Source: an uncultured Clostridia bacterium (GTDB taxonomy: Bacteria; Bacillota; Clostridia; TANB77; CAG-508). From it: a DNA stretch of 64,000 nt. Where the stretch lies: assembly GCA_948934525.1 (NCBI GenBank), contig CAQZSK010000001.1, positions 357,095 through 421,094 of the forward strand, written 5' to 3'. Each line of letters begins with the position of its first letter. Within the stretch, counting starts at the first letter, position 1. Below the pieces are notes generated by a model. The model saw nothing but the letters and a program-made list of their open reading frames with translations, did not search any database and was not told the DNA's origin. A program made the translations under genes and the position numbers. Of the stretch, positions 5,690 to 7,860 are shown piece after piece.

Positions 5690-7860
5690 GTGATATCAAA
5701 ATTAATATGAAAAGAAAAATAAGATATTTTTTGTATATATAATAGTAGAGATAAAAAACTGAAAATTAATATTAAATATTATTAATAATTTTGCTAAAAT
5801 TATTAATTGTTTAGATTTGAAAAAATAATTTATTAATATAATAAAAAAATTAAATAACAATATTAAGTGAAAATAAAAAATAAATTTTAATAGAAAAATA
5901 ATTTCAAGAAAGAAATAATGGTAGAAAAAAAATAGAATTTGTAAAAAAGGAAATTAAAAAAATCTTATTTTTATAAAATAAATAATTAGAAAGAAACTAA
6001 TAATTTATTGAATAGATTTTATAAAATAATAAAATATTATTTTAATAAATAAGGTAATAAAAAAATAAATATAAAAGGTAATTATATAAGGGATAAATAG
6101 TAAAAAATAAAAATAATACAAAAGGAAATAAGACAATATGACAAGAAGTATTGAGAATAAAGAATAAAAATTTAAATAGGATGAATTAAAAAAATAAAAA
6201 TATAAAAGGGTAGGGAAACAATAGAAATAGAGACAGTATAAAATTAACACAAATGACATATTGACAAAAAAAGAAGAGCAATTGAGATATGGGAAAAATA
6301 GAAAGATACCTGAGAGAATATAATAAATTGTGAAAATAGAGTAGTGAAATCATAAAAAAATATAAGAATATGATTAAGGAAGTGCTTCGGAAAACTATAA
6401 AATAGAAAAAATGGTAAGACGTGAGAAAAAGACAATGAAAGTAGACATAATACATAAGGAAGGTAGAAACTTTTACTTAAAAAGATAAGGCATTTAGAGG
6501 AGAAGATAAGTACATATTTTATGTGTTACTATTTGACAAAAGAACAAAAATGAGAAGAGGGAAATTGAAGAAAGACATGAAAGCGAAATGAGATAGGATA
6601 AAGGATGGAACAATAAAAAAATCATATAAAAAAAGAGATGTCAAAAAGTTATAATAAAAGAATAAGGGGATTTAAAAAGGGAAAAAATTATAATTAAAAA
6701 ATATTTGAATTTAATAAATAAATATAAATAAAGTGGAAAATAAATAATAGCATAACAGCCATAAATAATATAAAAAATAAAAGATGAAAGAAAAAATAGA
6801 AATAAATAATGTAGATAAAAAAATTGGAAATGTAAAAAACAAAATGTATAAAAAATTTAAACAGTAAAAATAAAAAAAGGAAACATGAAATAAAGACAAA
6901 AATAAAATTGAAAAAATAAAAAGATAAAAAATCAAAAAATAAAATTAAGAAATTAGAATAAAAATTAAAAAATAAAAAGTAAAGTAAAAAATAAAAAAAG
7001 TAGAAAAAAGAAATTAATGAAAAAAGTAAAAAAATTTTTAGAAGAAAATTAAAAATGGAAAATAAAAAAATATAAAAGAGAAATAAATTATAAATAAAAA
7101 ATTTATTTTGAAAATTAAAAATTAAAATAAAAAAATGAAATAAAAAATGAAATAAAAAAACTAAAAAGATAAAAGAATTTTTTGAAATAAAAATTAATAA
7201 AATGAAAAATAAAAAATATAGAAGGAAAAAGTAAATATAGAGAAAAGATAAAAAGAAAGAATTTGTTTAAAAATATAAAAATAAAACGGAATTTTCTAAT
7301 AGTGTTTAACAAAAGAAAATAAATAAAAAAGAAGTAGAAAAATATAAAAAAGGATAAAGATAAAAGAGGAAAAGAGAAATAACAGATGTAAGATTTTTGG
7401 CAAGCAATGAAAAATGATTTACCTATTTAAGAAACCCAAAAAGGTAGAAGGATTTTTAGAGAGATATAAATGACAAAAAAGCAAGTTTGAAAAAGGCAAA
7501 AAAGCAAGTATAATATAAAGGAAATATAATAAGCTAAGTATTTTCTTATTAAAAAGTAAGGAAAACATATAATAGATAGATAAAAAAAGTTATGAAAGTA
7601 TTGCGGAATAAGTAAAACAAGGAAAAAACTGAAAAAATTTATGGAACAGTTAATTGGTAGACATAAAGACGGAGTAACAAAGCATATTAGTTTGATAGTA
7701 AAGGAGTAAGAAGGTTTTACTTAAAACAACAATGACAATTTGACATTAGATTAAGAATGGAATGGTGGAAGAAATAGAAAGTAAAAGAATGGAAAAAATT
7801 AGAAGCTCGGAGTTGTTTTAAGATATGAAGAAGAAAGAGGAAAATATGATGGGAAAAGTA
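5690..7860 (+). other. Purine-rich, C-depleted low-complexity noncoding tract (~2.2 kb), copy 1
   Basis: + strand is almost only A and G with some T and very few C. No ORF of 60+ aa on the + strand. Minus-strand ORFs are poly-F/Y/L artefacts of the T-rich complement. Local tandem duplications (e.g. aatgaaataaaaa x2 near 7133). Confidence 0.6.

Follow-up and report, generated by a model that had tools for sequence, protein, structure and literature searches.

We analysed a 64-kb window from an uncultured Clostridia bacterium (64,000 nucleotides of contig CAQZSK010000001.1, positions 357,095 to 421,094), in which two long, A-rich and C-poor gene-free tracts are found, tract 1 at 5515-7905 (2391 bp) and tract 2 at 47754-50191 (2438 bp). 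The tracts, 42 kb apart, are tandem arrays of a noncoding unit, both of them syntenic and inherited vertically, with spacers at neutral composition. They belong to a conserved, lineage-specific noncoding repeat family which recurs in tandem arrays at two chromosomal sites in uncultured gut Clostridia; an earlier description of this family was not found in the literature or in the sequence libraries examined. Our preferred reading, which we hold with moderate confidence, is that the units are a lineage-specific family of cis-acting noncoding modules, probably protein-binding DNA, set apart by neutral spacer. The window opens with mnmE-mnmG-rsmG-parA-parB and is therefore origin-proximal; the cumulative GC skew climbs throughout its length. 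Relatives of its ParB are found in uncultured Clostridia metagenome-assembled genomes (MAGs) close to Clostridium sp. CAG:508 and CAG:567.

Each tract consists of two units of about 1.2 kb (period 1216 bp in tract 1 and 1236 bp in tract 2); in relatives the unit length is 0.77-1.1 kb. Every unit contains a core of about 290 bp, in which the short blocks M, B3, B4 and M' keep the same order, orientation and spacing from copy to copy. M reads TGACA-N3-TGACAA or AGACAA and also takes the forms AAAAAGACAA and TTGNCAAAAAGAC, B3 is CGGAAT, and B4 is GTAKACATAA (GTA[G/T/A]ACATAA across the copies). M lies 125-155 bp before B3 and M' 82-86 bp after B4; another block, B2 (TGTWAAC), is located at -62 or -72 and is confined to the clade of the relatives' loci L029, L030 and L092. 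The offsets of M, B2 and M' from B3 and B4 are consistent. Among C-containing words, AGACAA is the one most over-represented in the tracts. The spacers between cores measure 0.5-0.9 kb and have no conserved sequence.

All units of the window lie on the + strand. In tract 1, between tRNA-Ser(GCT) and a convergent PMT_2-like/GT2 operon, the core of unit 1 is found at 6254-6545 (nhmmer E=3e-18), with M TGACATATTGACAA at 6254-6267, B3 CGGAAAA at 6388-6394, B4 GTAGACATAA at 6441-6450 and M' TTGACAAAAGAAC at 6533-6545. The core of unit 2 is found at 7470-7745 (E=7e-20), with M ATGACAAAAAAGCAAG at 7470-7485, B3 GCGGAATAAG at 7603-7612, B4 GTAGACATAA at 7657-7666 and M' TGACAATTTGACA at 7733-7745. The spacer that separates them (6546-7469) is A-rich, of low complexity, has a C content of 0.5-4% and is unconserved between species. 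Tract 2 is placed between an FGE/CLec-domain gene and the sbcD promoter. Its first core (48587-48881) is degenerate, with M TACAATTAGACAA at 48587, a B3-like CGGTTA at 48730, a B4-like TTTACATAA at 48784-48792 and M' TACAATAAGACAA at 48869; the stretch CGGTTA..TTTACATAA (48730-48792) spans 63 nt, and the blocks are conserved in the orthologous locus L134. The second core (49823-50117), also compared with L134, carries M GACATTTAGACAA at 49823, a B3 mutated to AGGATA at 49966 where L134 reads GCGGATA, a B4-like GTTACATAA at 50020-50028 and M' GACAATAAGACAA at 50105. An extra M-type site, GACAAAAAGACAA, is present in the spacer at 48120-48132 and again at 49354-49366, so that each core is preceded by one at a distance of about 468 bp; the M-type sites of tract 2 (48120, 48587, 48869, 49354, 49823 and 50105) are thus spaced by 467, 282, 485, 469 and 282 bp.

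The same architecture is seen in the loci of relatives, which we label with L-numbers and which are MAG contigs, plus metagenome contigs such as L092 and L130. Their tracts are modular: nearly G+C-free stretches alternate with bumps of G 0.1-0.24, about 1 kb apart. The shared motifs first emerged when L030 was read alongside the window. The window has exactly two copies of GTAGACATAA, one per bump of tract 1, and the word is also present in bumps of L002, L030 and L034. The core family was recovered by an alignment anchored on this word, followed by iterated nhmmer, which finds diverged cores in every G-richer bump of L001, L002, L003, L020, L024, L029, L030 and L034. The strict pattern CGGA[AG]..TA.ACATAA has 18 matches when the window is searched together with the loci of relatives. 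Every one lies on the + strand within a tract, and the B3-B4 span is 63 nt in 15 and 64 nt in three of them; two matches fall in the window, against 0.06 expected from shuffles. A relaxed pattern recovers 29 copies, most with a span of 63 nt (22 of 29), the others with 64 nt (six) or 62 nt (one). A scan with the pattern across the whole viral and metagenome collection returned 86 matches, mostly due to chance; the real ones are only L069, L092 and L130.

Based on the number of units, the arrays range from two in the window, L001, L002 and contig L069, through three in L024, L029 and L034 and four in L030, to six in the metagenome contigs L092 and L130, where the period is about 880 bp. L030 is similar to itself at offsets of about 950 and 1937 bp, and its unit i is closest to unit i+2 (67% identity at 1937). 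The two span lengths also tend to alternate along an array, as 63, 64, 63, 64 nt in L030 (3870-7950) and 63, 64, 63, 63, 64, 63 nt in L092 (1480-6760). This alternation and the likeness of unit i to unit i+2 hint that duplication may proceed by pairs of cores. Comparisons of the tracts as wholes do not reveal the family: direct blastn of tract 1 against tract 2 gives about 60% identity along every diagonal, an effect of composition, entire tracts aligned across species with MAFFT show about 50% identity everywhere, and nhmmer with entire bumps as queries returns self-matches only, owing to its composition-bias filter.

The arrays recur at the same two loci, the tRNA-Ser/CoA-activase locus (locus i) and the TraG/SbcD locus (locus ii), and array-bearing relatives reach down to about 60% ParB identity. 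At locus i the array is in every case next to the CoA-activase gene, at its 3' end, or to the glycosyltransferase (GT) operon inserted there, and the tracts of all relatives are co-oriented. Their length is about 2 kb in L001, L002 and L003, 2.2 kb in L020, 2.9 kb in L024, 3.7 kb in L029, 4.1 kb in L030 and at least 3.6 kb in L034. In L092 and L130 the same CoA-activase gene is found on the right and there is no tRNA on the left; the genes that flank the array of L092 are divergent. L006, L007 and L011 have tRNA-Ser(GCT), its terminator and then the CoA-activase gene within about 45 bp; because the array, the PMT_2-like/GT2 operon and the Big_2 gene (5518-13349 of the window) are all absent there, this segment is a variable one. 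L001 contains the array and the GT operon without the Big_2 gene, and L024 and L030 contain the array only. At locus ii, L134-L137 (SbcD 85% identical) have a TraG-SbcD gap of 1974 bp with A.574 and C.05. L134 carries the canonical CGGATAAAGA..AAGTATACATAA spanning 63 nt, and every block of tract 2 (M, B3, B4 and M') is conserved in it, with identities of 16 and 19 nt at M and M'. L138 has no array at this locus, and in L139 (4512-6989) the gap is filled by a 2.5-kb gene, about the length of an array, for an 825-aa A_deaminase-domain protein.

Concerning the immediate setting of tract 1, the preliminary description of this DNA, made from the letters alone, had placed it between a tRNA-Ser pair and the terminator of a glycosylation operon, and this is correct. 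The genes of tRNA-Ser(TGA) and tRNA-Ser(GCT) (5302-5514) lie directly upstream and are followed by a first hairpin at about 5521-5550, seen by eye, and by an intrinsic terminator on the + strand at 5634-5675. A bidirectional terminator hairpin (7865-7900, both strands), which is shared with the convergent PMT_2-like gene and kept in L001 and L002, closes the array. The genes 3' of tract 1 encode a protein with a weak PMT_2 match, a GT2 protein, a Big_2 protein and a 1455-aa CoA-enzyme activase; the PMT_2-like/GT2 operon is convergent with the tract. The same description had also pointed out a local tandem duplication near 7133, which is there as a 13-nt tandem repeat (7112-7160), and a second tract of like kind at 47940-50150, which falls within the gap occupied by tract 2.

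The base composition of the tracts is the mutational background which unconstrained DNA reaches in this genome. Over the complete gaps A is about 0.57 and C about 0.04-0.06. The frequencies are A 0.575, C 0.038, G 0.147 and T 0.240 for 5690-7860 and A 0.605, C 0.053, G 0.144 and T 0.198 for 47940-50150; the whole window has A 0.419, C 0.120, G 0.170 and T 0.290, and its remaining intergenic gaps (60-1412 bp) are of ordinary composition. The four-fold degenerate sites of the genes spanning 634-63424 are A.604, C.056, G.071 and T.270 in + strand genes, and A.556, C.033, G.083 and T.327 in - strand genes read on the + strand, the latter from only nine genes. Since the synonymous sites of both gene orientations converge on the make-up of the tracts, the skew is that of the leading-strand equilibrium of the genome. 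The strand-specific mutational equilibrium proposed at the outset thus accounts for the composition, though not for the tract. The tract G of 0.147 is twice that of four-fold sites (0.07-0.08), and the excess is gathered in two bumps per tract. The case is a cautionary one, as a striking anomaly of composition turned out to be the neutral equilibrium of the genome. Four-fold sites have A well above T and G at or above C on the + (leading) strand in genes of both orientations, which links the A>T skew to the replication strand. In Staphylococcus aureus, by contrast, the A>T skew tracks the sense strand and has been attributed to selection (PMC3174206).

Against this background the short blocks stand out. 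Identity at four-fold sites between the window and its relatives is 0.50-0.59, compared with 0.446 for random draws, so neutral sequence has been almost randomised; the failure of the spacers to align is consistent with such near-saturated neutral divergence. Blocks of 10-19 nt are nevertheless invariant between orthologous units. The 17-nt block AAAGTATTGCGGAATAA of tract 1 unit 2 is invariant in the window, L001 and L002, and ATGACAAAAA, TGACAATTTG, ATGWCATATTGACAA and TTTACAATTTGACAA are further blocks kept in orthologous units. Judged from these comparisons, the short blocks are under purifying selection, and the C and G positions retained in a near-neutral background point at functional bases.

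The fixed order and spacing of the blocks, the absence of a fold and the direct repeats of AGACA/TGACA-type sites lead us to propose, somewhat less firmly than the cis-acting reading as a whole, that the cores act at the level of DNA as multi-site binding platforms. Block spacings of 53, 63, about 84 and about 95 bp correspond to approximately 5, 6, 8 and 9 helical turns. Each core would be a platform for one or more proteins, on which AGACA/TGACA-type sites and the B3/B4 pair, spaced by roughly these numbers of turns, would be presented together; a platform every 1 kb or so over flexible AT-rich spacer would then allow a looped higher-order complex at two fixed sites near the origin, with a putative role in chromosome organisation or regulation. 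A bolder version, which we consider unlikely, is that the arrays are an undescribed class of kb-period modules in CAG-508-like gut Clostridia that serve as origin-proximal organising centres: a multi-protein complex would assemble on each core of about 290 bp (AGACA/TGACA-type sites plus the CGGAAT/GTAKACATAA pair), cores would be looped across the neutral spacer, and the role would lie in segregation or condensation, in replication control or in the titration of a regulator.

Several points weigh against the interpretation as binding DNA. The choice of DNA over RNA rests on the absence of a fold plus the spacing. The step of 9-10 bp in the distance from M/B2 to B3, seen in L092, may be a single inherited indel and would then be weak evidence of helical phasing, and two other distances are non-integral (72 bp, or 6.9 turns, and 145 bp, or 13.8 turns). 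The copies of tract 2 are degenerate; they were missed by nhmmer, and one B3 has lost its C. The array is dispensable, being missing in L006, L007, L011, L033, L035 and L138, and all observed arrays come from two orthologous loci only. Also, the excess of G in the tracts over four-fold sites is only partly explained by the G-richer cores.

Known systems offer partial parallels to the proposed binding platforms. The chromosomal loci datA and DARS of Escherichia coli, the DnaA-box clusters of Bacillus subtilis and plasmid centromeres such as the sopC and parS arrays are likewise noncoding and origin-proximal, with several short sites at fixed distances, and they are dispensable in some strains, act in cis and have no product. 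Their units measure tens of bp, whereas those described here are on the kb scale with long neutral spacers, and the tracts lack DnaA boxes and parS. For DnaA boxes (TTATNCACA) there is one site with one mismatch in tract 1 and none in tract 2 (24 in the window against 20 expected), and the 16-bp parS palindrome TGTTNCACGTGAAACA has no site in the tracts at up to three mismatches. REP/BIME, ERIC, RUP/BOX and MITEs are also lineage-specific noncoding intergenic repeats; they are 30-400 bp long, mostly palindromes or sequences with inverted repeats at their ends, and scattered over many loci, in contrast to the present cores, which have no inverted repeats or fold, are in tandem at two syntenic loci and are diverged except for the blocks. 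A comparison of the blocks, not a rigorous one, with the consensus sites of sporulation sigma factors, Spo0A, CtsR, PhoP/WalR, GntR/HutC, SpoIIID, RTP-Ter and Tn7 TnsB gave no convincing fit. Searches for CRISPR and short-period tandem repeats (TRF and a repeat search) returned only low-complexity families of 60-80% identity.

Two structural ideas of the preliminary description concerned the DNA itself. An A-tract-phased, bent region is not supported, since power in the 10-11.2 bp band of A-tract and AA/TT periodicity is within the shuffle range in both tracts and all four spacers. H-DNA fares no better: the longest purine runs are 18 and 25 nt, against shuffle means of 21 and 23.

The main rival to protein-binding DNA is an unstructured A-rich RNA, an explanation we regard as possible but distinctly less probable; a purine-rich RNA templated by the tract was among the ideas of the preliminary description. 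According to it, read-through from the tRNA-Ser operon, or internal promoters, would yield long A-rich transcripts of the arrays that lack structure, and the blocks would be linear motifs recognised by an RNA-binding protein or by an enzyme of RNA processing. The B3-B4 segment of 63 nt might even be cut out as a small RNA whose ends are conserved. All units are oriented like the upstream tRNA genes or the FGE gene, the conserved ends are fixed at 63-64 nt while the interior varies, no + strand terminator is found inside the array before the hairpin at 7865-7900, and the + strand RNA, being C-poor, would be a poor substrate for Rho. Transcription from the tRNA genes would, however, have to pass the two terminators that precede tract 1, and the array of L092 has no tRNA upstream and divergent flanking genes. 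No consistent sigma-70-type promoter is present either, as promoter-like sites number 19 against 20.3 in shuffles; a reading of M/M' (TTGACA) or B4 (TAGACA) as sigma-70 promoter elements was rejected for want of a consistent -10.

Tests for a structured RNA were negative throughout. RNAalifold on nine cores predicts no pairs, with neither a consensus fold nor covariation; minimum free energies over ten cores have mean z values of -0.9 on the + strand and -0.4 on the - strand, close to zero and short of what a structured RNA would give; and Rfam models detect only tRNAs in the window at the gathering score, in 5500-7950 at E<=5 and in the arrays of L092 and L030 at E<=1. The large ROOL, GOLLD, OLE and HEARO RNAs of Firmicutes and their phages are similar in being noncoding units of several hundred nt adjoining tRNA genes (here at locus i); those RNAs are highly structured, contain G+C and have Rfam models, whereas the arrays have no Rfam match or consensus structure. 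Enrichment of Shine-Dalgarno-like and GGA (CsrA-type) motifs in the tracts was also negative.

The noncoding nature of the tracts, noted from the beginning, holds. There is no + strand open reading frame (ORF) in tract 1, and the - strand ORFs, already suspected to be artefacts, measure only 41-89 aa and are not conserved. The period-3 signal is absent from the tracts (z -1.4 to +1.5), compared with z of 2-12 in neighbouring genes, including an equally A-rich sbcC-like gene. A small - strand protein with its start codon in B4, as the ATG of the reverse complement, was rejected (ORFs of 4-100 aa, unconserved), as were + strand micro-ORFs, whose frames vary between copies by inspection. A diversity-generating retroelement cassette decayed 3' of the FGE/CLec gene was also rejected: no template/variable repeat pair and no reverse transcriptase gene are found, and the array of L134 exists without the FGE gene.

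An origin of the units in an integrative or recombination-dependent element, of which they would be relics or non-autonomous copies, appears improbable to us; in this view the blocks would be sites for a recombinase or accessory protein, and the arrays would grow by tandem integration or unequal recombination. Copy number does vary from two to six, and the i to i+2 similarity of L030 (67% identity at an offset of 1937) would fit such growth. Locus i adjoins a tRNA gene, at which L034 has gained an MNT/HepT cassette and a duplication of 73 nt, and locus ii adjoins a TraG/VirD4-type gene. The reverse complement of B4, TTATGT[A/C/T]TACT, also resembles the XerD arm of the B. subtilis dif site, TTATGTAAACT, from which TTATGTATACT differs at one position; we treat this as a lead only. 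As dif/XerD half-sites, however, the B4 blocks would lack an XerC arm and a central region, and they lie near the origin while dif lies at the terminus. No full 28-bp dif/Xer site, composed of an 11-bp XerC arm, a 6-bp centre and an 11-bp XerD arm, was seen beside B4 by inspection, the sequence after ACATAA is unconserved, and there are no inverted repeats. Neither array has an adjoining recombinase gene, blastn of the core against phage and plasmid collections gives no match, orthologous units have kept their order through vertical inheritance, and TraG is syntenic in relatives with and without the array.

Insertion of an island at the tRNA-Ser pair had been suggested as well. Within the window, the 3' end of tRNA-Ser(GCT), searched as a 22-mer (up to three mismatches) and a 15-mer (up to two), is found only in the tRNA itself, and no att-like repeat is present to mark an island, even though the segment 5518-13349 is variable. 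In the clade, tRNA-Ser(GCT) appears to be an active integration site, judged from L034, where a 1-kb MNT (nucleotidyltransferase)/HepT toxin-antitoxin cassette (11344-12441) is inserted at this tRNA ahead of the array and is accompanied by a duplicated tRNA 3' end of 73 nt (93% identity). The suggestion that the tract is a decayed remnant of a mobile element does not agree with ordered blocks shared with syntenic arrays of two to six units at a divergence where synonymous sites are near saturation.

That the tracts are purely neutral DNA, that is, decayed genes or island remnants at compositional equilibrium whose shared motifs are due to chance or artefact, is already disfavoured and in our estimate very improbable. 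The composition does match four-fold sites, outside the blocks MAFFT and nhmmer align nothing between tracts or species, and the locus ii position of L139 holds a gene of similar length to a tract. Chance does not account for the two strict matches in the window against 0.06 expected, for 18 in all on one strand with a span of 63 or 64 nt, or for blocks that are invariant where synonymous sites are near saturation. A pseudogene or decayed coding region was rejected on two counts: no residual period-3 signal is left, and tblastn of the 825-aa protein of L139 against the tracts finds nothing (E>5). Also, the cores, with G 0.15-0.24 and low T, are off the path from coding to equilibrium composition. 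The decayed-gene remnants of Rickettsia prowazekii resemble the spacers in their unconstrained composition and lack of detectable homology between species; the tracts differ in carrying selected, ordered blocks that are syntenic across genera.

An assembly artefact of low-complexity reads, raised early on as a misassembly, has a negligible probability: about 20 of the 35 related MAG contigs (L001-L035) do stop 150-700 bp past parB, but Logan contigs of run SRR10593855 cover both tracts at 100% identity (L133 for window 5430-13605 and L045 for 47460-53843; they may share reads with the window assembly), and orthologous arrays of the same architecture, assembled in many MAGs and metagenome contigs of other studies, give independent support. 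The breaks just after parB indicate that short reads assemble poorly in this region, and the arrays probably explain why contigs of the clade end after parB and the tRNA-Ser pair.

The family has been missed by annotation pipelines, Rfam and repeat finders. If the arrays are functional, either as binding platforms or as RNA motifs, they would offer a point of entry to chromosome biology or regulation in an abundant but uncultured gut lineage. The arrays could also be used as lineage markers.

Some further observations concern the genes around the arrays. The TraG/VirD4-type gene (44288-46333) has no other conjugation genes nearby, and the order Ddl-HD-DnaJ-x-x-TraG-[array]-SbcD is kept in relatives down to about 65% SbcD identity; on account of this synteny it resembles a domesticated core gene more than a recently arrived mobile element. 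The paralogous proteins encoded at 10751-13192 and 46509-47753 are alike at the N-terminus, which is hydrophobic and pilin-like (51% identity over 55 aa), and both end in an FGE-sulfatase/C-type-lectin-like domain (27% identity); one also contains Big_2 repeats. Each paralog is near one array in the window, but the first is absent from L001 and the second from L134. An RT-14 RNA motif of Rfam is present at 26868-27011 (76.8 bits against a gathering score of 48.1), with no reverse transcriptase gene nearby, just upstream of a gene of the UDP-glucose pyrophosphorylase family (27138-28382). The SbcD nuclease is split into two overlapping ORFs, 50216-50725 (169 aa) and 50697-51293 (198 aa). Since all close relatives (P0001-P0007 and L134-L137) have SbcD divided in this way as well, into 169-172 aa plus 198 aa, the arrangement is a conserved one and not a private pseudogene, possibly a programmed frameshift or a two-gene form.

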